From NCBI GenBank assembly GCA_964614265.1, contig CAZTKT010000002.1, positions 1-38,792 of the forward strand: a stretch of DNA of 38,792 nt, read 5' to 3'. The notes below the pieces were generated by a model. That model was not told the DNA's origin. It worked only from the letters and a program-made list of their open reading frames with translations, and ran no database searches. Numbering within the stretch: the first letter of the stretch is position 1; each line of letters opens with the position of its first letter. This DNA comes from an uncultured Candidatus Saccharibacteria bacterium (lineage in GTDB: Bacteria; Patescibacteriota; Minisyncoccia; Phycocordibacterales; UBA918). Position numbers and translations under genes: made by a program. This document shows, in pieces, positions 4,008-19,832 of the stretch.

Positions 4008-5534
4008 ATGGATAGCATCGTACAACAACTTAAAAAGGAGATCGAAGGTTTCAAAAGCGAGATCAAGGCTGAAAAAGTCGGGTACGTGCTTGAGGTTGGC
4101 GATGGGATCGCCAAAATCTCTGGTATTTCAGGTGCTGCGTCGCAAGAGATGCTCGAGATTGAGACATCACGTGGTATGGTCACCGCACTCGCATTCAACC
4201 TCGAAGAAGAGACTGTCGGCGCGGTCGTGCTTGGGGATGCCTCAGACATCAAACAAGGAGCGCTCGTGCGTCCTACAGGACGCGTGCTCTCCGTGCGTGT
4301 GGGAGATGAGCTTATTGGTCGCGTCGTCAATGCACTCGGTGAGCCTATCGATAATCAAGGTGCCATTTTTCAAAAAGATACCGAGGAAATTTTTTATCCG
4401 GTCGAACGTCGAGCGCCGGGCGTATTGGCACGCGAATCAGTGAATACGCCGCTCCATACTGGTATCAAGGCGATTGATGCGATTATCCCGATTGGTCGGG
4501 GGCAGCGCGAGCTCATTATCGGTGATCGCGGATTAGGGAAGACGGCAATTGCGCTCGACACGATCATCAATCAAAAAAATGATGCGAGTGACCGTCGTCC
4601 CATTTGTATTTATGTTGCGATCGGGCAAAAAGAATCAAAAGTGGCACGACTCATTGCGACACTGAGAGAGGCGGGCGCGATGGAATATACAATCATCGTC
4701 TCTGCTCCCGCGTCAGCACCGTCTCCTATGTGGTATCTTGCGCCATACACCGCAACAGCGATCGGTGAATACTTTATGGAACGTGGGCAAGATGCGCTCG
4801 TGATCTATGATGACCTCTCCAAACATGCGTGGTCGTACCGCGAGCTCTCGCTTCTACTGCGGCGACCGCCCGGACGCGAAGCATACCCAGGGGATATTTT
4901 TTATCTACACTCACGTCTCCTTGAACGTTCTGCAAAATTAAACAAAGAGCATGGAGGGGGTTCTCTTACTGCGCTTCCAATCATTGAAACACAGCTCGGG
5001 GATGTGTCTGCGTATATTCCAACGAATGTGATTTCCATCACTGATGGGCAGATATATCTCGAACCAGAACTCTTTTATCAAGGCAATCGTCCGGCGGTAA
5101 ACGCGGGGTTGTCGGTGTCGCGTGTGGGATCTGCCGCACAAACAAAAGCGATGAAGAAAGTGGCGGGACGGCTTCGCCTCGAGCTTGCACAGTTTCGTGA
5201 GCTCGCGGCCTTTATGCAATTTTCTTCAGAGCTTGATGAAGGGACACGTAAGCGCATCGAGCGAGGAAAAGTGCTTTCAGAAATACTCAAACAACCAGAG
5301 CTTGCCCCAGTGCCATTTGAGTATCAGGTCGTGCTCATCTGGGCCGCAACGAATGGATGGTTTGATGCGGTGGGACCAGAACAGGCTGCGGCGCGAGGGC
5401 ATGCGTTTCTTGAATATATCCACAAGCTTTATCGAGAAGAAATCTTTGGTGCGATCCGCACCTCGGGTGATCTGTCGGAGGTCACTGAAACCGCATTGAA
5501 GAGCGCTGCAGAGACATTTGCAACGTTGCCGTAG
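4008..5534 (+). CDS. atpA: F1 ATP synthase subunit alpha
   Basis: Walker A GDRGLGKT, and conserved alpha motifs ([39 protein letters not shown]). Confidence 0.97.
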
Positions 5535-5546
5535 AGAGAAAAATAC

Positions 5547-5608
5547 ATGGCCTCAATCAAATCAATCAGACAGAGAATAAAGGGCGCGCAGAATACCGCG
5601 AAGATCAC
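5547..5608 (+). repeat. atpG 5'-end copy 1 (truncated remnant; open for 35 codons to the TGA at 5652-5654)
   Basis: 60/62 nt identical (by eye) to the start of the intact atpG at 7419-7480. It begins 12 nt after the atpA stop and encodes MASIKSIRQRIKGAQNTAKITK before diverging. Confidence 0.95.
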
Positions 5609-5615
5609 GAAAAAG

Positions 5616-5644
5616 TTGACATATCTTTACGCTATGTATAAACT
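5616..5644 (+). promoter_or_regulatory. Promoter-like TTGACA-17 nt-TAAACT, immediately after repeat copy 1
   Basis: The hexamers are at 5616-5621 and 5639-5644. The -10 hexamer ends 6 nt before the antitoxin ATG at 5651, and there is no SD. This suggests a leaderless or near-leaderless transcript. Confidence 0.5.
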
Positions 5645-5650
5645 ATATCC

Positions 5651-5926
5651 ATGACGACACAAATCGTATTCACCATTGATCCGAAAGTGAAAATGCAAGC
5701 GATGAAGCGCGCGAAGCAAGCGGGGGTTCCGTTCGCCTCCGTTTTGAAGCTGGCGACCAAGGCGTTCGCCGAGGGTAGATTTTCTGTGGACATTACGTCC
5801 GAAGAGCGCTTTAACGCGAAAACGAAGCGAGAAATCCGCGTGGCTCTGCGCGATGCTGAACAGGGGAAAAATATTCTATCGTTCAAGAATGCCGGGGAGA
5901 TGGACAAGTATCTTCTCTCGCTTTAG
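5651..5926 (+). CDS. Type II antitoxin, RelB/DinJ-like
   Basis: 91 aa. The N-terminal ribbon-helix-helix-like segment and the C-terminal part (NAKTKREIRVALRDAEQG...FKNAGEMDKYL) resemble the DinJ layout. It lies directly upstream of a RelE-like ORF. Confidence 0.7.
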   Translation: MTTQIVFTIDPKVKMQAMKRAKQAGVPFASVLKLATKAFAEGRFSVDITSEERFNAKTKREIRVALRDAEQGKNILSFKNAGEMDKYLLSL

Positions 5927-5935
5927 CAATCAGGT

Positions 5936-6193
5936 ATGGAAATTGAGTTTCATCGACTATTTCTTAAACAATATAAGAAGTTGCCGAGTACTATTCGCGT
6001 ACAGTTTGTCGAACGGAAAAACCTCTTTACACAGGAACCATTTCATCCGCTCCTGCACAACCATTCCGTCGACAGTGTATTCCCCGATTGCCGGAGCATT
6101 AATATCACGGGCGACTACCGGGCGATATTTAGACAACAAGATAAACAGGTACTATTCCTTCAGATTGGCATGCACAGCGAGTTATATAGATGA
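5936..6193 (+). CDS. Type II toxin, RelE/YafQ-family mRNA interferase-like
   Basis: 85 aa with the pattern HPLLHNH...RSINITGDYRAIF...LFLQIGMHSELY, typical of RelE/ParE-fold toxins. Confidence 0.75.
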   Translation: MEIEFHRLFLKQYKKLPSTIRVQFVERKNLFTQEPFHPLLHNHSVDSVFPDCRSINITGDYRAIFRQQDKQVLFLQIGMHSELYR

Positions 6194-6211
6194 AGGATAA
6201 AGAAATATAAT

Positions 6212-6270
6212 ATGACCTCAATTAAATCGATCAGACAGAGAATAAAGGGTGCGCAGAACACCGCGAAGAT
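6212..6270 (+). repeat. atpG 5'-end copy 2 (truncated remnant; open for 31 codons to the TGA at 6305-6307)
   Basis: 54/59 nt identical (by eye) to 7419-7477. It encodes MTSIKSIRQRIKGAQNTAK before diverging. Confidence 0.95.
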
Positions 6271-6284
6271 GGGCGTCCACGCGT

Positions 6285-6313
6285 TTGTCTTGGGTTTTTC
6301 ATCGTGATATACT
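6285..6313 (+). promoter_or_regulatory. Promoter-like TTGTCT-17 nt-TATACT, immediately after repeat copy 2
   Basis: The -10 hexamer ends 7 nt before the ATG at 6321, and there is no SD. Confidence 0.45.
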
Positions 6314-6320
6314 CGCAACT

Positions 6321-6536
6321 ATGGACACGATTGCTATCCCAAAAACCGAATACAAGCAACTACAACGCCAAGCGAGCGCCTATAAAAAAATGGCTCAAAA
6401 TCTGCATGAGTCGCTGTTACGGGATTCGGCCGGAGCGGTAGTCGCCGATTTTAGAGAGACAGGTTTATATGAAGAAGATTTTTTGTCTGATCTGGAAGAT
6501 GGACTGCGTAAATCTTCCTACGCGAAGAAAAAATGA
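6321..6536 (+). CDS. Putative type II antitoxin (71 aa)
   Basis: Small acidic ORF whose stop overlaps the start of the downstream RelE-like ORF (ATGA at 6533-6536). The start was moved from the track's 6249 to the ATG at 6321, downstream of the promoter-like site. The family is not recognised. Confidence 0.55.
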   Translation: MDTIAIPKTEYKQLQRQASAYKKMAQNLHESLLRDSAGAVVADFRETGLYEEDFLSDLEDGLRKSSYAKKK

Positions 6537-6781
6537 AAATCAAACTAATTCGGCCTGATGTTCTTCTCTATATCAAAGAGCACAATCTCTTGGCTAAATG
6601 GAAAAAGGCGAAGAAATTTTTTGAAACAGATGTGCGTCATTCAGCGCTTCGGATGGAATTATTGGAACCGGGGTGGCGTGGCATTTATTCTTTTCGTCTC
6701 GATCCAAAGTATCGCGCTCTCTTTTTTATAGATCAAGGGAAGGCTGAAGTCTTCAGAATTACAAACCACTACAAGAAATAA
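6533..6781 (+). CDS. RelE/ParE-superfamily toxin-like protein (82 aa)
   Basis: Pattern LEPGWRGIYSFRLDPKYRALFFIDQGKAEVFRITNHY, typical of RelE-fold toxins. It is translationally coupled to the upstream small ORF. Confidence 0.65.
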   Translation: MKIKLIRPDVLLYIKEHNLLAKWKKAKKFFETDVRHSALRMELLEPGWRGIYSFRLDPKYRALFFIDQGKAEVFRITNHYKK

Positions 6782-6788
6782 TTATACT

Positions 6789-7409
6789 ATGACTAGCCGC
6801 ACCCTAGCGAAAATTGCGCTCATACTGGCTATTTCCTTGATCGGAAGTATCATTTTTCTTTCTGGTTTTGGGAGGGGCACGTCAATCATGCAATTTAAAG
6901 GACAACCAATTTTGAAAGTAACGTACCCTCGCTTTTCCTATGTCTTTAGACGATATGGACAAACTTTCCCTGATCTTCCCACAGAAGCCTTCATAATTCC
7001 GATAGGAGACGCTTTGACGTTCCCTACCGGTGATTGCCAACTGGTATCTTTTACTGTATCTGACCCTAAAGAGCATGGCGAGTATGTACCTTCGCCAAAG
7101 TATGTACGTTCACCAGAGGAATACGAGGGTGCAGACACTGTAACACGAGCTGTAGTTGATACTGGATATAGCGAGGATCAGACAACTATAAATCATGAAT
7201 ATTCTAGTAAAGAAATTAACGGGAGAGAATTTTTTGTTTTTCGTGATACAAATAGCACTTATCCTGATCACGAGAGGGAACACTTGCTTACGTGGGTAGG
7301 TAAAACTATGATTAAGATAGTCTATGAGACGAAATCAATATATTGTGACGATCTTGCTGACATTCCTCAGATTTTAAACTCGTTACAGGTCATAGGAGGA
7401 CAAAAATAA
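6789..7409 (+). CDS. Hypothetical protein with an N-terminal membrane anchor (206 aa)
   Basis: Long ORF with an N-terminal hydrophobic helix (LAKIALILAISLIGSIIFLSGF). Visibly lower G+C than the atp genes. No family recognised. Confidence 0.6.
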   Translation: MTSRTLAKIALILAISLIGSIIFLSGFGRGTSIMQFKGQPILKVTYPRFSYVFRRYGQTFPDLPTEAFIIPIGDALTFPTGDCQLVSFTVSDPKEHGEYVPSPKYVRSPEEYEGADTVTRAVVDTGYSEDQTTINHEYSSKEINGREFFVFRDTNSTYPDHEREHLLTWVGKTMIKIVYETKSIYCDDLADIPQILNSLQVIGGQK

Positions 7410-7418
7410 CCAATAGAT

Positions 7419-8360
7419 ATGGCCTCAATCAAATCAATCAGACAGAGAATAAAGGGTGCGCAGAATACCGCAAAGATCACCAAGGCGATGGAGGTGGTGT
7501 CGGCGACAAAGATGCGTAGGTCGCAACAGTTTGCACTGCGCGCGCGACCGTATGCGGTCGTGGCGCTCGAGATGCTTCATAATATTCTCACCCGCACCGC
7601 CCACGGTGAAGAGGTACCGGTGCATCCGCTTTTTGCAGATCGTACTATTTCTTCTCGGGCATTAGTGGTAGTGAGTGCAGACAAGGGTCTCGCTGGTGCC
7701 ATCAACACAAACATTCTAAAAAAAGCTGATGCGTGGATCGCTGGCCATGGTGATCTGCCGTTTACCCTCATTACGGTGGGGAAGAAGGCGAAAGAGTATT
7801 TTGAACGGCGAGGGGTGCCGATTAGGCATGCATTCTTTGGGTTTGGGGATTATAGTATGCAAGCACAGACGCGTCCAGTTGCGGAGGTTTTGATCAATGG
7901 GTTTCTTGAGGGGTCGTGGGATTCGGTTGAAGTGATCTATACCAATTTTCGCACCTCACTACTTCAGGAGAGTGTACTGCGGTCCCTTCTGCCGGCTCGA
8001 GAGACTGGACTTATTGAAGCAGTACGGGGTATCATGCCAGAGGCCGGTCGATTTGCCGCTTCGCCTATGGTCGCGACATCGGTGAATCCCTATCGATACG
8101 AATATCTGATAGAGCCATCCCCAGAAGAGGTACTGTCGGTATTGGTGCCACAATTGGTTACCTTGCAGGTGCATCACATGATCCTCGAGTCAAATGCCTC
8201 AGAGCACTCCGCACGGATGGTCGCGATGAAGAGTGCGTCCGACAACGCACAGGAGCTGATCACCGATTTTACGCGCCTGTATAATCAGGTGCGTCAGGCC
8301 GGCATCACTCGCGAAATCGCCGAGATTAGCGCTGGCGCAGAGGCGTTACAGGAAGTATAA
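7419..8360 (+). CDS. atpG: F1 ATP synthase subunit gamma
   Basis: N-terminus MASIKSIRQRIKGAQNTAKITKAMEVVSATKMRR and C-terminus ITREIAEISAGAEAL are the conserved gamma helices. Confidence 0.93.
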   Translation: MASIKSIRQRIKGAQNTAKITKAMEVVSATKMRRSQQFALRARPYAVVALEMLHNILTRTAHGEEVPVHPLFADRTISSRALVVVSADKGLAGAINTNILKKADAWIAGHGDLPFTLITVGKKAKEYFERRGVPIRHAFFGFGDYSMQAQTRPVAEVLINGFLEGSWDSVEVIYTNFRTSLLQESVLRSLLPARETGLIEAVRGIMPEAGRFAASPMVATSVNPYRYEYLIEPSPEEVLSVLVPQLVTLQVHHMILESNASEHSARMVAMKSASDNAQELITDFTRLYNQVRQAGITREIAEISAGAEALQEV

Positions 8361-8416: not shown

Positions 8417-8764
8417 ATGGGTATCGAACAGAGTAGTTCCAACAGAAGTGAGGGTCGCTTGTCAAGCCAACAGGAGATTGCAACTAAAATGTCCAATTTA
8501 AGACAGTCAGCACTGTTTGATGAAAAAAAACCAGATCATGTTCTTATTGAGGTAAATGCTGTTTGCACAGAGATGGTGCAATACCTTGAGACCGGCAATC
8601 TTGAAAGAGTTATCAATTTTTTTGATAAAAATAATCCAGGACATGAAGTCGAGGCGCAGTTCAATGGGGTGGGGGGAAGACCTGCATTCGTAAAGATCTT
8701 AACAGAGATAGGGGTTTCTGTTCCTAATTTTTCAAATATTCCTGATGTTTCAAAGGTGGCATAA
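8417..8764 (+). CDS. Hypothetical protein (115 aa) inserted between atpG and atpD
   Basis: ORF with visibly lower G+C than its neighbours. TATAAA lies 7 nt upstream of the ATG. No family recognised. Confidence 0.5.
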   Translation: MGIEQSSSNRSEGRLSSQQEIATKMSNLRQSALFDEKKPDHVLIEVNAVCTEMVQYLETGNLERVINFFDKNNPGHEVEAQFNGVGGRPAFVKILTEIGVSVPNFSNIPDVSKVA

Positions 8765-10232: not shown

Positions 10233-10466
10233 GTGGGGGTAATTGGTTGTGGAATCGGTTATTATGCCGGGCGTTTTTTGGGTGTGGGGTGGTTGGGATA
10301 CCTATTCATTTTTGCTGTGGGGACAGCGGTTCTTGCTTGGGTGATCAAATTGATCTTTAAACTGGATGCGTTCCTAGAGCATATTATCGCCAGCATTATC
10401 TGGGGATTTCTTTTAGGGCTGTTTTTTAATAAAAAAATACTTCCACTCTTACCCTGGACAATATAG
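10233..10466 (+). CDS. Small hydrophobic membrane protein (77 aa, GTG start)
   Basis: Two or three hydrophobic helices by eye. There is a weak resemblance to AtpZ/AtpI-type small atp-operon proteins (GIGYYAGRFLG...), but this is not established. Confidence 0.4.
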   Translation: MGVIGCGIGYYAGRFLGVGWLGYLFIFAVGTAVLAWVIKLIFKLDAFLEHIIASIIWGFLLGLFFNKKILPLLPWTI

Positions 10467-10616: not shown

Positions 10617-11051
10617 ATGAATGAAAATATACCATTTGGATCTATTGGTCATAACAAAGAGGGTTCTTCATCTCCGCAAGAAACATATATACAAGATCTG
10701 AAATTAGGAGGAGTGGCAGGGCAACTCGAGGAAATTTTTCAGAGCGGTCAGGAATCTGAAGCGCTCAAGAAGTTTCCAGATTTGGCTTTTGACGTAGATA
10801 AGCTCATGGAAATTATAAAAAATGCGGACGGAACACCACTGCTTCTCTCAGAACTGATCAAAGCACTGCGTATCTGGGCGAAGGAAGAACGTCTCAGCGG
10901 ACAGGCTGATGCTGAACGTGGGGGACGTCAGTATGAGGAGGAATACAGGATTCATTGGGATGCAACAATAGCGGCAGCGAAAAAAGATGGTTATAAAGTG
11001 GTTGCCCCTGCACACACTGATTCCGGTCTCTCGTTTCGCTTGAGGGATTAA
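10617..11051 (+). CDS. Hypothetical protein (144 aa) inserted between atpD and atpC
   Basis: ORF with TATAAT 7 nt upstream of the ATG. No family recognised. Confidence 0.5.
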   Translation: MNENIPFGSIGHNKEGSSSPQETYIQDLKLGGVAGQLEEIFQSGQESEALKKFPDLAFDVDKLMEIIKNADGTPLLLSELIKALRIWAKEERLSGQADAERGGRQYEEEYRIHWDATIAAAKKDGYKVVAPAHTDSGLSFRLRD

Positions 11052-19334: not shown

Positions 19335-19832
19335 ATGATACCAAACAAAAAATACCTCGTGACCCTCTTCGCGATGATACTTCTTTTCAGTGGCGCCTTT
19401 CTCTACACCAGTGCTGTCGTTTCAGCACAGATTCCTGCCCCCGGAGACAAACCACCAGCGCCACCTGTCGCTCCCCCAACTCAACCACCAGGTGGAACTA
19501 CTCAACCACCAGGTGGAGCTGTCGCTCCCCCAACTCAACCACCAGGTGGAACTACTCGTCCAGACGAAAGACTTTTCAACCCCCTCAAAGTCAATTCAAT
19601 CGGTGAACTCCTCAGCCTCATTCTCAATGTCGTGACGATATTTGCCGTCCCAATCGTTGTCTTTTTCCTCATCTATTCAGGTTTTCTCTACGTCACTGCC
19701 CAAGGCAAACCAGAAGCGATCCAAAAGGCAACCACTGCATTCACCTGGACCATTGTCGGCGGTCTCATTGTACTCGGCGCCAACACACTGCTCACCATTA
19801 TTCAAAAAACCGTCGAGTCCTTACATCAATGA
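19335..19832 (+). CDS. VirB2/TrbC-like (T4SS-type) pilin paralog 1 with a Pro-rich repeat linker
   Basis: Signal peptide ending VSAQ, then a PPTQPPGGTT repeat linker, then two hydrophobic helices separated by a short charged loop (TAQGKPEAIQK). The ATG at 19335 is 7 nt after the upstream stop. Confidence 0.7.
   Translation: MIPNKKYLVTLFAMILLFSGAFLYTSAVVSAQIPAPGDKPPAPPVAPPTQPPGGTTQPPGGAVAPPTQPPGGTTRPDERLFNPLKVNSIGELLSLILNVVTIFAVPIVVFFLIYSGFLYVTAQGKPEAIQKATTAFTWTIVGGLIVLGANTLLTIIQKTVESLHQ
19467..19556 (+). repeat. In-frame tandem DNA repeat (36-nt unit at 19467 and 19521, 54-nt period; 16-mer tcaaccaccaggtgga three times)
   Basis: Read directly from the sequence. It encodes VAPPTQPPGGTTQPPGGAVAPPTQPPGGTT. 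Confidence 0.9.

Follow-up and report, generated by a model that had tools for sequence, protein, structure and literature searches.

Toxin-antitoxin cassettes bounded by copies of the atpG start in the ATP synthase operon of an uncultured Candidatus Saccharibacteria bacterium

How can cassettes settle at the very start of a gene inside an operon and leave that gene whole? The question is raised by a stretch of 38,792 nt (hereafter the window) of contig CAZTKT010000002.1, assembly GCA_964614265.1, from an uncultured Candidatus Saccharibacteria bacterium. The host is an uncultured ultra-small bacterium, and atpG is an essential gene. Three direct copies of the atpG 5' end (5547-5612, 6212-6270 and 7419-7484) delimit two toxin-antitoxin (TA) cassettes in the ATP synthase operon, which confirms the central claim of the initial annotation. 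The cassettes appear to insert into the essential gene without breaking it, each bringing a copy of about 60 bases of the atpG start. We favour, with a probability of about 0.55, the reading that they are two minimal non-autonomous mobile TA cassettes inserted at the atpG 5' end by single-crossover (Campbell-type) recombination.

Architecture of the atpA-atpG junction

The features of the junction are as follows.

4008-5534, + strand: atpA (F1 alpha subunit), an open reading frame (ORF) with Pfam domains ATP-synt_ab_N, ATP-synt_ab and ATP-synt_ab_C
5547-5612, + strand: copy 1, a remnant of atpG codons 1-22 and left boundary of cassette 1 (BLAST, codon comparison)
5616-5644, + strand: promoter-like site of cassette 1, TTGACA-17-TAAACT, its -35 box beginning 4 nt past the end of copy 1
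5651-5926, + strand: antitoxin 1 (91 aa), an ORF whose homologs one source names RelBE/YafQ-DinJ antitoxin component
5936-6193, + strand: toxin 1 (85 aa), RelE/ParE/YafQ superfamily by profile matches
6212-6270, + strand: copy 2, atpG nt 1-59, right boundary of cassette 1 and left boundary of cassette 2
6285-6313, + strand: promoter-like site of cassette 2, TTGTCT-17-TATACT, with TG before the second hexamer
6321-6536, + strand: antitoxin 2 (71 aa), overlapping the toxin-2 start by 4 nt
6533-6781, + strand: toxin 2 (82 aa), predicted YoeB/RelE fold (Foldseek on an AlphaFold model)
6789-7409, + strand: ORF206, a predicted membrane-anchored protein, extra cargo after toxin 2
7419-8360, + strand: intact atpG (F1 gamma subunit, 313 aa; Pfam ATP-synt E = 3.9e-81), its first 66 nt being copy 3 (7419-7484)
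5570-5581 (copy 1), 6235-6246 (copy 2) and 7442-7453 (copy 3), + strand: invariant core CAGAGAATAAAG, atpG nt 24-35

Copy 1 begins 12 nt after the atpA stop codon and is identical to copy 3 at 62 of 66 positions (BLAST E = 3.6e-24), and the four mismatches all fall at third codon positions. A 35-codon ORF starts with copy 1, and its stop overlaps the start codon of antitoxin 1 (ATGA). Copy 2 matches copy 3 at 54 of 59 positions (BLAST E = 2e-18), and its position corresponds to the start of the intact atpG in the related contig L088. The counts given initially (60/62 for 5547-5608 and 54/59 for copy 2) were reproduced, and copy 1 was found to reach further, to 5612. The earlier list of differences was also right, with synonymous third-codon changes at positions 12, 18, 39, 48 and 54 and a change of Ala2 to Thr at position 4; copy 1 adds two more synonymous differences, at nt 63 and 66. 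Within the core, nt 25-34 (CAGAGAATAA) are the same in all full-length copies, the remnant in L091 excepted (CAGCGCATTC), and they are deleted in L108. No further repeat of this kind occurs elsewhere in the 38.8-kb window.

Both cassettes follow the order first described for them (repeat, promoter-like site, antitoxin, RelE-fold toxin), as confirmed by the promoter-like sites, the toxin profiles and the toxin 2 model. Toxin 1 scores above the cut-offs of Pfam ParE_toxin (30.5 bits, cut-off 23) and TIGR02385 RelE/StbE (28.3 bits, cut-off 27.9), and antitoxin 1 has no Pfam match. Toxin 2 gives only weak sequence matches, and its predicted fold comes from an AlphaFold model (pLDDT 89.6) that Foldseek aligned to YoeB structures with a TM of 0.72 and a probability of 1.0. 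The cassette 1 promoter-like site is conserved in L088, L090, L108 and L112, and a region homologous to that of cassette 2 is present in L091; such sites are no more numerous in the region than chance would give. That the pairs act as TA systems and cause addiction is assumed, on the basis of their families.

Repeats of this kind could arise as an assembly chimera, either of strain variants joined at the repeat or of a free circular cassette spliced into an empty site. The only exact repeat of at least 31 nt is a 38-nt stretch common to copies 1 and 3; Logan k=31 contigs break exactly there, and at k=31, taken by itself, the assembly graph would be equally compatible with an empty site and a separate circle of 1872 nt. 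Against this, Logan contig SRR10388233_1484697, an independent k=31 assembly from two samples, equals window positions 5555-7448 at every base and joins cassette 1, copy 2 and cassette 2 identically, and the 38-nt repeat is resolved in the deposited contig. The integrated architecture is also found in four independent assemblies (L088, L090, L091 and L108/L109), which support it because their copies are too diverged for assembler confusion; in the integrated forms of L088, L090, L091 and L108-L110, the longest shared run is about 20 nt. Judged from these sequences, misassembly of the array is unlikely, and a chimera seems highly improbable.

A variable site and a transferred cassette

Related metagenome contigs (L-numbered) and 69 species representatives were compared at the junction. 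L088 carries atpA, remnant, cassette 1 and atpG, and L091 carries remnant, cassette 2 and atpG. In L090, a decayed remnant is followed by antitoxin 1, a toxin-1 pseudogene, cassette 2 and atpG, while L108 has cassette 1 with an internally shortened remnant and L089 has an unrelated 109-aa ORF without duplication. The atpA-atpG gap is 120 nt or less in 61 of the 69 species representatives, and the more distant species mostly have empty sites. The atpG-start site is modular and variable among relatives, its states comprising cassette 1 alone, cassette 2 alone, both, a different ORF, decayed and empty. The empty, single-cassette and other-cargo sites whose search had been proposed were all found, together with two-cassette and decayed forms, and the description of a tandem array of repeat-bounded cassettes that regenerates the atpG 5' end is borne out by the architecture and the variable site. 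Among the contigs, neither a truly empty site within the immediate clade nor a circular cassette form or excision junction was observed.

Comparison of third codon positions between the window and L088 revealed an identity of 153/176 (87%) for cassette 1 versus 125/313 (40%) for atpG (p = 1e-25). Against L108, cassette 1 reaches 70% and atpA, atpG and atpD together 44% (p = 1e-10); the excess is weaker for cassette 2 (60% vs 44%, p = 0.001). On this comparison cassette 1 has demonstrably moved horizontally between lineages, in line with the proposal of a mobile rather than a static arrangement. The result contradicts an old duplication of the atpG start in situ, inherited vertically with the cassettes and with copies kept similar by gene conversion. 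Copies 1 and 3 are indeed identical over nt 1-38, where the orthologous copy in L088 and L090 has diverged, which suggests gene conversion, and decayed versions exist in L090 and L108. However, cassette content varies between close relatives, and the differences between copies are structured by codon position, unlike the neutral decay of a dead copy. We consider a static duplication very unlikely.

The differences between the remnants and the resident atpG lie at third codon positions in 26 of 34 cases (p = 3e-7), and the variant bases of the remnants are found as alleles in working atpG genes of relatives. Since the differences are mostly at third positions, the copies were, by their codon structure, once functional atpG alleles of other lineages, as had been suggested.

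Analysis of the identity between the window and L088 along the junction located the ends of the transferred tract. Identity is 48% at the atpA 3' end, 70% over nt 1-23 of the left copy and 91% from nt 24 through the whole cassette; in the next copy, on the right, it is 94% over nt 1-35 and 75% over nt 36-59. The left atpG copy enters the high-identity tract at about nt 24, and the right copy leaves it at about nt 35; the segment tests that place the crossover use short stretches (p = 0.04 and 0.05). Because both tract ends map to the interval of nt 24-35, we infer that the tract is the footprint of a single crossover, within that interval, between a circular cassette and the atpG start. An earlier suggestion, that the cassettes hitchhiked on long atpA/atpG flanking homology, is contradicted: the atp flanks are saturated at synonymous sites between the window and L088, and the tract ends inside the 66-nt repeat on both sides.

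Possible routes into the atpG start

In the proposed mechanism, a putative circular cassette would bring along a transferable copy of about 60-66 nt from the atpG start, and this copy would recombine with the chromosomal atpG start by a crossover at the invariant nt 24-35. After integration, the start codon and N-terminal codons supplied by the cassette would complete the intact atpG on the right, and a truncated remnant of the atpG start would stay on the left. Further insertions of this kind, or unequal crossing-over between different strains, could build up an array. A cassette would be deleted when its flanking direct repeats recombine, but a cell that loses a TA pair should die; for this reason TA-bearing arrays would be retained, and the TA pairs probably stabilise the array. 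The crossover is most likely the work of the host's general homologous recombination, which would use the homology carried by the cassette, rather than of a dedicated site-specific recombinase. It counts against the proposal that homologous recombination should work poorly over about 60 nt with 85-90% identity.

The same architecture was found at other genes. In L002, a ParE-family TA pair has at its flanks duplicated gene ends, 153 nt from the atpD 3' end and 94 nt from the atpC 5' end. In L019, a HicA toxin gene and its upstream partner ORF lie between duplicated stretches of the atpC 3' end, about 170-189 nt long, and in L111/L112, a TA pair of the cassette 1 family is flanked by 53-nt copies of the end of a kinase-fragment gene. 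The repeats at these loci are 53 to 189 nt long, the target sequences are unrelated, and 44 of 67 differences between the copies lie at third codon positions (p = 6e-8). The atpG start is thus a target, as first noted, but not a unique one: atpD, atpC and a kinase gene end are targeted too, with other TA families, which argues for a homology-guided process rather than a dedicated atpG-specific system. Duplication is not obligatory for the spread of cassettes, as shown by toxin-2-family cassettes in other operons (L093, L095 and L101), which lie there without duplicated flanks.

The right end of the remnant bears on a second explanation. It lies at nt 66 in cassette 1 and in the unrelated cassette 2 of L091, and at nt 59 for cassette 2 in the window; the initial annotation had asked for a check of whether this boundary is constant. 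A break point common to unrelated cassettes hints at a defined recombination site or some constraint, which plain homologous recombination would not predict. Site-specific integration by a recombinase acting in trans, most plausibly a tyrosine integrase encoded by an autonomous element whose attachment site is likewise the atpG start, would account for this end, for the placement of both tract ends in one 12-nt invariant core, and for the start of the repeat at the initiation codon, which fits an element that has to replace no more than the displaced coding sequence. Precedents are dusA-specific islands, which swap in an island-supplied dusA 5' end and leave a remnant (PMC4482086), and tycheposon arrays with partial tRNA copies and degenerate elements (10.1101/2020.12.28.424599). 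On such a route, the cassettes would be non-autonomous passengers, CIME-like or satellite-like, and the 60-66 nt identity block would only rebuild the atpG 5' end, as in dusA-targeting islands. However, no tyrosine recombinase was found in the 38.8-kb window or in any related locus examined, and no autonomous element with this attachment site in viral, plasmid and phage collections. The repeat shows no dyad symmetry or hairpin potential (z-scores -0.2 to +0.9), and several distinct specificities would be required to serve four unrelated targets whose repeats span 53-189 nt. Homologous recombination, too, would be expected to cross over in the invariant core, as this is the longest stretch of exact identity between copies. 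Integration in trans is possible, though we regard it as less likely.

The initial statement that the cassettes hold no recombinase or transposase agrees with our finding of no recombinase domain in any of the five cassette ORFs; nor was a recombinase gene found in any cassette or neighbouring cargo examined across related loci. A serine recombinase gene does lie at the window start (98-1765), and the cassettes are small, co-oriented and in tandem, with TA genes and their own promoters as is typical of chromosomal integrons. Both candidates, an integron-like array and integration by this large serine recombinase, fail the defining features tested. The integron comparison drawn initially does not hold, as attC-like hairpins or imperfect palindromes and an integron integrase are lacking and the repeats consist of target-gene coding sequence. 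The serine recombinase, once named as a possible agent, is an unlikely one, being 3.6 kb from the site, past a tRNA-His gene and five atp genes. Large serine recombinases have short crossover cores and, to our knowledge, leave no 60-nt direct repeats. We give these two routes almost no weight.

Entry without a circle was also considered, by illegitimate or one-sided homologous recombination (e.g. homology-facilitated after DNA uptake) or by double-crossover replacement of an older cassette. These bacteria probably depend on taking up DNA, the repeats differ in length (53 to 189 nt), and L089, ORF206, ORF115 and toxin-2-family cassettes elsewhere lie at the same or neighbouring junctions without duplication. 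On this route, duplications would survive because insertions that do not keep an intact gene end are lethal. Two independent crossovers are not expected in the same 12-nt interval of both copies, however, and a duplication with alleles of different lineages is the expected product of a crossover with a circle and hard to obtain from a linear fragment, so that we consider this entry unlikely.

Related systems and additional cargo

The dusA-specific islands and prophages (DAI tyrosine integrases; Farrugia et al. 2015) integrate at a gene 5' end, supply a new 5' end and leave a remnant (PMC4482086). They share with the present locus a protein-coding 5' end as target, an element-supplied 5' end, a far-side remnant and imperfect direct repeats, but carry their own integrase adjoining the attachment site, span tens of kb and have attachment repeats of about 21 bp (PMC4482086). 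The cassettes at atpG lack an integrase, carry 0.6-1.2 kb of cargo between repeats of 59-66 nt, and target an essential gene within an operon. Arrays of islands that target tRNA or tmRNA genes are represented by Prochlorococcus tycheposons (10.1101/2020.12.28.424599) and Dehalococcoides ssrA islands (PMC3146451). As at atpG, successive integrations at the same site push older elements outward, cargo lies between partial target copies, and degenerate elements without integrase are included. Those arrays target the 3' end of an RNA gene and their active elements carry tyrosine recombinases, whereas at atpG a protein-coding gene is targeted at its 5' end and the search for an autonomous partner found none.

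CIMEs, known from the accretion of streptococcal ICEs, are segments bounded by attachment sites without a recombination module, in tandem arrays at the end of a housekeeping gene. In being bounded by target-site copies, lacking a recombination module and forming a tandem array they resemble the present cassettes, but they are defined by a known ICE integrase that recognises the same sites, and no such partner is known here. In Campbell-type integration, as with suicide plasmids, a circle with a gene fragment recombines with the chromosome to give a direct duplication around the insert, and in both this process and homology-facilitated illegitimate recombination in competent bacteria a short portable homology sets the target, as here. 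These routes are mainly a laboratory procedure or sporadic events, and we know of no description of Campbell-type recombination as the recurrent lifestyle of a natural TA cassette family with 50-190 nt of conserved-gene ends.

TA cassettes of the Vibrio superintegron and other sedentary chromosomal integrons are credited with guarding the array against loss (PMC11023631 and its references). They too are small TA pairs with their own promoters within a cassette array, but integron cassettes have attC hairpin boundaries and are moved by IntI at attI, whereas the boundaries here are coding-sequence copies without hairpin and intI is lacking.

The cargo of cassette 2 also differs between relatives. 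ORF206 is absent from L090 and L091 and present in L092, whose ORF shares about 29-35% identity with it (29% by tblastn, 35% by codon alignment). In keeping with horizontal transfer, the G+C content of the cassettes is lower, at about 0.38-0.49, than the roughly 0.49-0.59 of the atp genes.

Layout of the repeats and cassettes in the ATP synthase operon

The F1Fo ATP synthase operon in the window has the order atpB, atpE, atpF, atpH, atpA, atpG, atpD, atpC, and the closest relatives of the window bear the labels Kaiserbacteria, Paceibacterota or Sungbacteria. A stretch of 1.9 kb of extra DNA separates the atpA stop (5534) from the intact atpG (7419–8360). The first 59–66 nt of atpG form three direct repeats, with no further repeat of this kind in the window, and the two cassettes between them have a lower G+C content than the atp genes.

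Repeats and cassettes between atpA and atpG
5547–5612: copy 1, identical to the real atpG start at 62/66 positions
5616–5644: promoter-like site of cassette 1, followed by genes for an antitoxin (91 aa) and a RelE/ParE-family toxin (85 aa)
6212–6270: copy 2, identical to the real atpG start at 54/59 positions
6285–6313: promoter-like site of cassette 2, followed by genes for an antitoxin (71 aa) and a toxin (82 aa), then a 206-aa ORF without assigned function (ORF206)
7419–7484: copy 3, the real atpG start

The insert boundaries are imperfect direct repeats of target-gene sequence, and the insert lies between the intact gene and a remnant (the leftover atpG-start copy 5′ of a cassette). The same holds for the related loci L088, L090 and L091 (L numbers denote the loci and contigs used for comparison). 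A weak terminator-like hairpin with a T-run (6266–6291) extends across the 3′ end of copy 2 into the −35 box of the promoter of cassette 2.

Analysis of the cassette genes identified the RelE/ParE/YoeB toxin fold in both toxins. Toxin 1 matched ParE_toxin with 30.5 bits (cut-off 23) and TIGR02385 with 28.3 bits (cut-off 27.9). The structure model of toxin 2 (pLDDT 89.6) matched YoeB structures at TM 0.72, and weak HigB/YoeB matches were found in 27/27 members of its family. In each cassette, the small antitoxin gene lies directly 5′ of the toxin gene, with a promoter-like site immediately upstream; the two genes are 9 nt apart in cassette 1 and overlap by 4 nt in cassette 2. Antitoxin and toxin are kept together as pairs in relatives, and both pairs are predicted to be type II toxin–antitoxin (TA) systems of the RelE/ParE superfamily. 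The remnant ORF was also considered as a leader peptide coupled to antitoxin 1 through an ATGA overlap (window and L088). This was rejected as a conserved function because L090 has no start codon and an internal deletion in L108 leaves a 7-codon ORF.

Assembly evidence bears on whether the array could be an artefact. In the Logan k=31 assembly of run SRR10388233, one contig is identical to window 5555–7448, and it is also present in a second sample; the reads thus link cassette 1, copy 2 and cassette 2 without a gap. The only break in the Logan assembly falls at the 38 nt that are exactly common to copies 1 and 3, where the k=31 graph fits an integrated array and an empty site plus a circle alike. 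The integrated arrangement is present in four other assemblies (L088, L090, L091, and L108 with L109/L110), whose copies are too diverged for assembler confusion.

Site variation and transfer at the atpA–atpG junction

Related loci were collected by a degenerate search for atpG-start codons in metagenome contigs and by retrieving the closest homologs of the toxins and antitoxins.

Arrangement of the related loci
L088: atpA, 66-nt remnant, cassette 1, atpG
L108 (GCA_016204695.1): arrangement of L088, with remnant nt 10–60 missing
L091: 262-aa ORF, 66-nt remnant, cassette 2, atpG
L090: atpA, decayed remnant (no start codon), antitoxin 1, toxin-1 pseudogene, cassette 2 without a remnant of its own, atpG
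L092: cassette 2, then an ORF206 homolog
L089: atpA, unrelated DUF2019-like ORF, atpG; no duplication

The gap between atpA and atpG is ≤120 nt in 61/69 species-representative genomes. The initial annotation had proposed scoring relatives for empty, single-cassette and alternative-cargo sites; comparison of the loci showed a modular site, with cassette 1 alone in L088, cassette 2 alone in L091 and another ORF in L089. In L108 (4329–4385), the remnant is reduced to ATGGCGTCT joined to ACGAAG by the in-frame loss of nt 10–60 (numbered from the atpG start codon). In L090 (453–520 and 930–1100), the remnant start codon is gone, toxin 1 is reduced to its 3′ part and copy 2 is absent; the junction reads ...TTATATG followed directly by ATATACTCGC, and the window is longer by 92 nt there. 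These two forms are decay states of the array.

A toxin-2-family pair also occupies the atpA–atpG junction of L001, a distant genome whose atpG is 56% identical, with no remnant. Vertical co-inheritance of this cassette is unsupported, its toxin being nearer to family members in other operons (72–76% identity) than to toxin 2 of the window (61%). This suggests that the L001 cassette arrived independently, although it is a single case and may be due to chance (p about 0.07 as a rough estimate). A nearly perfect inverted repeat of ~165 nt (L001 434–598) lies between the atpA stop and this TA pair, which is directly 5′ of atpG.

Comparison of third codon positions between the window and L088 revealed 153/176 identities (87%) over cassette 1 versus 125/313 (40%, near saturation) over atpG (p = 1e-25). 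The corresponding values were 70% for cassette 1 versus 44% over atpA, atpG and atpD with L108, and 73% versus 40% with L090. These contrasts show horizontal movement of cassette 1. The excess is smaller for cassette 2 (52–63% versus 40–49%), which makes it older or less recently exchanged.

Along the window–L088 alignment, identity is 48% over the atpA 3′ end, 70% over remnant nt 1–23, 91% over remnant nt 24–66, 91% over the promoter, antitoxin 1, toxin 1 and spacer, 94% over nt 1–35 of the next atpG-start copy, and 75% over nt 36–59 of that copy. From these switches in identity, both ends of the shared tract fall within one 12-nt interval, CAGAGAATAAAG (nt 24–35); the segment tests gave p = 0.04 and 0.05, a modest significance because the segments are short. 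Within this interval, nt 25–34 (CAGAGAATAA) are invariant in all full-length copies examined except the L091 remnant (CAGCGCATTC), and L108 lacks nt 10–60. Such ends would be expected from a single crossover between a chromosomal atpG start and a circle of atpG-start copy plus cassette; two independent crossovers would give no reason for coincident ends. Cassette-borne homogenisation of atpG nt 1–66 was considered and rejected, as conservation in the clade extends over the entire first ~50 codons, and nt 1–66 do not significantly exceed nt 67–165 in identity.

The extra copies had been proposed to be sequences that once functioned as atpG, and their differences from the resident gene agree with this. 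Among four remnants compared with resident atpG, 26/34 differences are at third positions (p = 3e-7) and 22/28 changed codons are synonymous. Variant bases of the remnants are also present in working atpG genes of relatives, and the N-terminal sequence read from the L091 remnant (IKQRIRS...) is characteristic of other lineages. An in situ, neutrally decaying duplicate would not give such a pattern. Together with the third-position pattern, the tract shared over remnant nt 24–66 and nt 1–35 of the next copy indicates that one copy was supplied by the element. The copies are former working atpG alleles, one copy per genome being imported.

Gene-end duplications at other genes

Similar structures were found at other targets, and by these sequences the cassette architecture is evidently not specific to atpG.

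TA pairs beside other duplicated gene ends
L002 (Sungbacteria): ParE-family TA pair, minus strand, in 1.9 kb of cargo between atpD and atpC
L002 7437–7589 and 9481–9633: 153-nt copies of the atpD 3′ end
L002 8645–8738 and 9696–9789: 94-nt copies of the atpC 5′ end
L019 (Yonathbacteria) 5052–5221 and 5792–5961: HicA toxin gene and upstream partner ORF between atpC and a ~170–189-nt atpC 3′-end remnant
L111 8904–8956 and 9578–9630, the same as L112 83–135 and 757–809: cassette-1-family TA pair with the 3′ end of a kinase-fragment gene duplicated on either side (53 nt each)

The L002 pair lies between the 94-nt atpC 5′-end copy and the 153-nt atpD 3′-end copy, beside the intact genes. The L019 toxin matched HicA_toxin with E = 6.7e-15. 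In L111/L112 the target is a HATPase_c fragment gene outside any atp operon, the antitoxin is 77% identical, and the stop codon of the intact kinase-fragment copy lies inside the TTGACA box of the cassette. Third-position differences account for 11/14 in the L002 atpD copy, 24/36 in the L019 copies, and 44/67 when L002, L019 and L111/L112 are pooled. No recombinase gene is encoded in the inserts of these loci. Three paralogous copies of the HATPase_c fragment are present in L111 (1934–2287, 5381–5557 and 8605–8966).

Toxin-2-family cassettes in other operons (L093, L095–L100 and L101–L104) show no gene-end duplications, so not all cassettes of this family come with one. Direct repeats in the atp loci L005, L007, L043, L056 and L074 were also rejected, as they are intergenic or reflect atpA/atpD paralogy. 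In the rpiB–rpe–transketolase operon of L095–L100 (e.g., L095 1558–3893), a toxin-2-family pair and about four paralogous ORFs of 75–98 aa, which look membrane-associated, lie between the operon genes, making this one more core operon used as a cargo site.

Three small ORFs without family match occupy the atpG–atpD and atpD–atpC junctions of the window (8417–8764, 10233–10466 and 10617–11051). The ORFs at these junctions differ in relatives (136 aa and 99 aa in L108; 340 aa and 160 aa in L088), and in L090 atpD follows atpG directly with no ORF between. Each junction of the ATP synthase operon seems to accept cargo, at these three window positions without duplications.

Comparison with known systems and possible mechanism

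For integrons, transposons and integrase-borne islands alike, at least one of the defining features tested is missing from the window array. Integron cassette arrays have attC sites and an intI gene with attI and a Pc promoter, whereas the window has neither attC nor intI. An inverted-repeat search revealed no attC-like palindromes at the cassette boundaries, single-strand DNA folds of the three copies on both strands gave z-scores of −0.2 to +0.9, and no intI or tyrosine recombinase domain was found in the window ORFs scanned. The comparison with integron cassettes in the initial annotation therefore fails for want of an attC-like hairpin and an integron integrase; the likeness to chromosomal integrons lies in TA pairs within an array, to which an array-stabilising role has been assigned there (PMC11023631). 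A transposon or insertion sequence needs a transposase, terminal inverted repeats and a fixed-length duplication, but the window has no transposase or inverted repeats; duplication lengths by site are 53, 59, 66, 94, 153 and ~170–189 nt, and the two copies are different alleles. The geometry is like that of dusA-type islands (gene-end repeats, a remnant and an element-supplied copy), yet these have their own integrase beside the attachment site (PMC4482086). No recombinase domain was detected in the five window cassette ORFs, and no recombinase is listed among the ORFs of L086, L088, L090, L091 or L108. The array geometry of the window resembles arrays built by successive integration.

The only recombinase among the window ORFs scanned is a large serine recombinase (98–1765, with Resolvase, Recombinase and Zn_ribbon_recom domains). 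Attachment sites of such enzymes have a short shared crossover core, with the gene at the insert edge; here the boundaries are direct repeats of 59–66 nt. The enzyme had been put forward as a possible agent, which is unlikely, since its gene lies 3.6 kb upstream with tRNA-His and five atp genes (atpB, atpE, atpF, atpH and atpA) between. Its ORF (32–1894, + strand) reads without a stop through tRNA-His (1766–1840, − strand) just upstream of atpB, and may mark the border of a further integrated element situated left of the window.

The observations fit integration of a circular cassette by one crossover within its portable copy of the target gene end, which would rebuild the target gene and leave a remnant; the array could grow by repeated integration or unequal crossing-over. 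Host general homologous recombination is favoured for this crossover, because the targets are unrelated, the repeats range from 53 to 189 nt with no recombinase or hairpin site, copy 1 of the window seems converted by copy 3 over nt 1–38, and no exact match between copies is longer than the crossover interval. One serious rival is a recombinase supplied in trans, as in dusA islands or tycheposon arrays (10.1101/2020.12.28.424599): it would account for the remnant ending at nt 66 in two unrelated cassettes, and ~60 nt at 85–90% identity is a poor substrate for homologous recombination. The unrelated targets and variable repeat lengths speak against it, as does the absence of a recombinase from the cassette ORFs and of a hairpin site from the repeat. 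Viral contigs, plasmids, phages and the 100+ loci collected yielded no autonomous partner using this attachment site, on which a cis-mobilizable element would depend; genomes of this group are sparsely sampled. The atpG-start pattern and cassette proteins had no relevant match in viral contigs that would point to a carrier phage or plasmid, and the whole 1.9-kb region had no match in plasmid or phage collections. The TA pairs probably stabilise the array, as the insert would otherwise be lost by recombination of the repeats on either side of it.

Patescibacteria have tiny, streamlined genomes with few recognisable mobile elements. Our broadest reading, tentative and with a probability of only about 0.3, is that they carry undescribed minimal selfish elements consisting of a TA pair whose sole "integration module" is a 50–190 nt copy of the end of a conserved, often essential gene (atpG, atpD, atpC or others). 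This gene end would steer a single crossover into the same gene of the next host and take the place of the displaced end, leaving that gene intact. Excision would be punished by the TA pair, and the element would need no recombinase of its own. Such elements could spread between species otherwise saturated with synonymous change, and the ATP synthase operon, like other core operons, would become a cassette array.

The array shows how accessory genes can enter Patescibacteria genomes and move between them, at the core of an essential operon that is left unbroken. If integration is homology-guided, a TA pair and ~60 nt of conserved gene would suffice for a mobile, self-stabilising element, a new minimal design of mobile DNA and a natural counterpart to laboratory single-crossover knock-ins; if a recombinase acts in trans, the atpG start would be a new attachment site. 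In either case, the remnants are datable fossils of foreign atpG alleles that directly document gene flow among uncultured lineages, and duplicated gene starts call for practical caution in assembling and annotating Patescibacteria genomes. We found neither atpG-start targeting nor TA cassettes within this group's ATP synthase operons described earlier in the literature, our coverage of which was incomplete.

Several minor features were noted in the window. Known RNA families gave only a chance-level match in 5000–8000. The motif GGTGCGCAGAA (atpG nt 38–48; 7456–7466, 5584–5594 and 6249–6259) resembles GGTGCGCATAA, which we take to be the XerC-binding arm of E. coli dif; with no matching XerD arm and the rest of dif absent, the resemblance is probably a coincidence. 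A perfect 39-nt direct repeat (19465–19503 and 19519–19557, spacing 54 nt) lies in or beside an ORF that follows a solute-binding protein gene.
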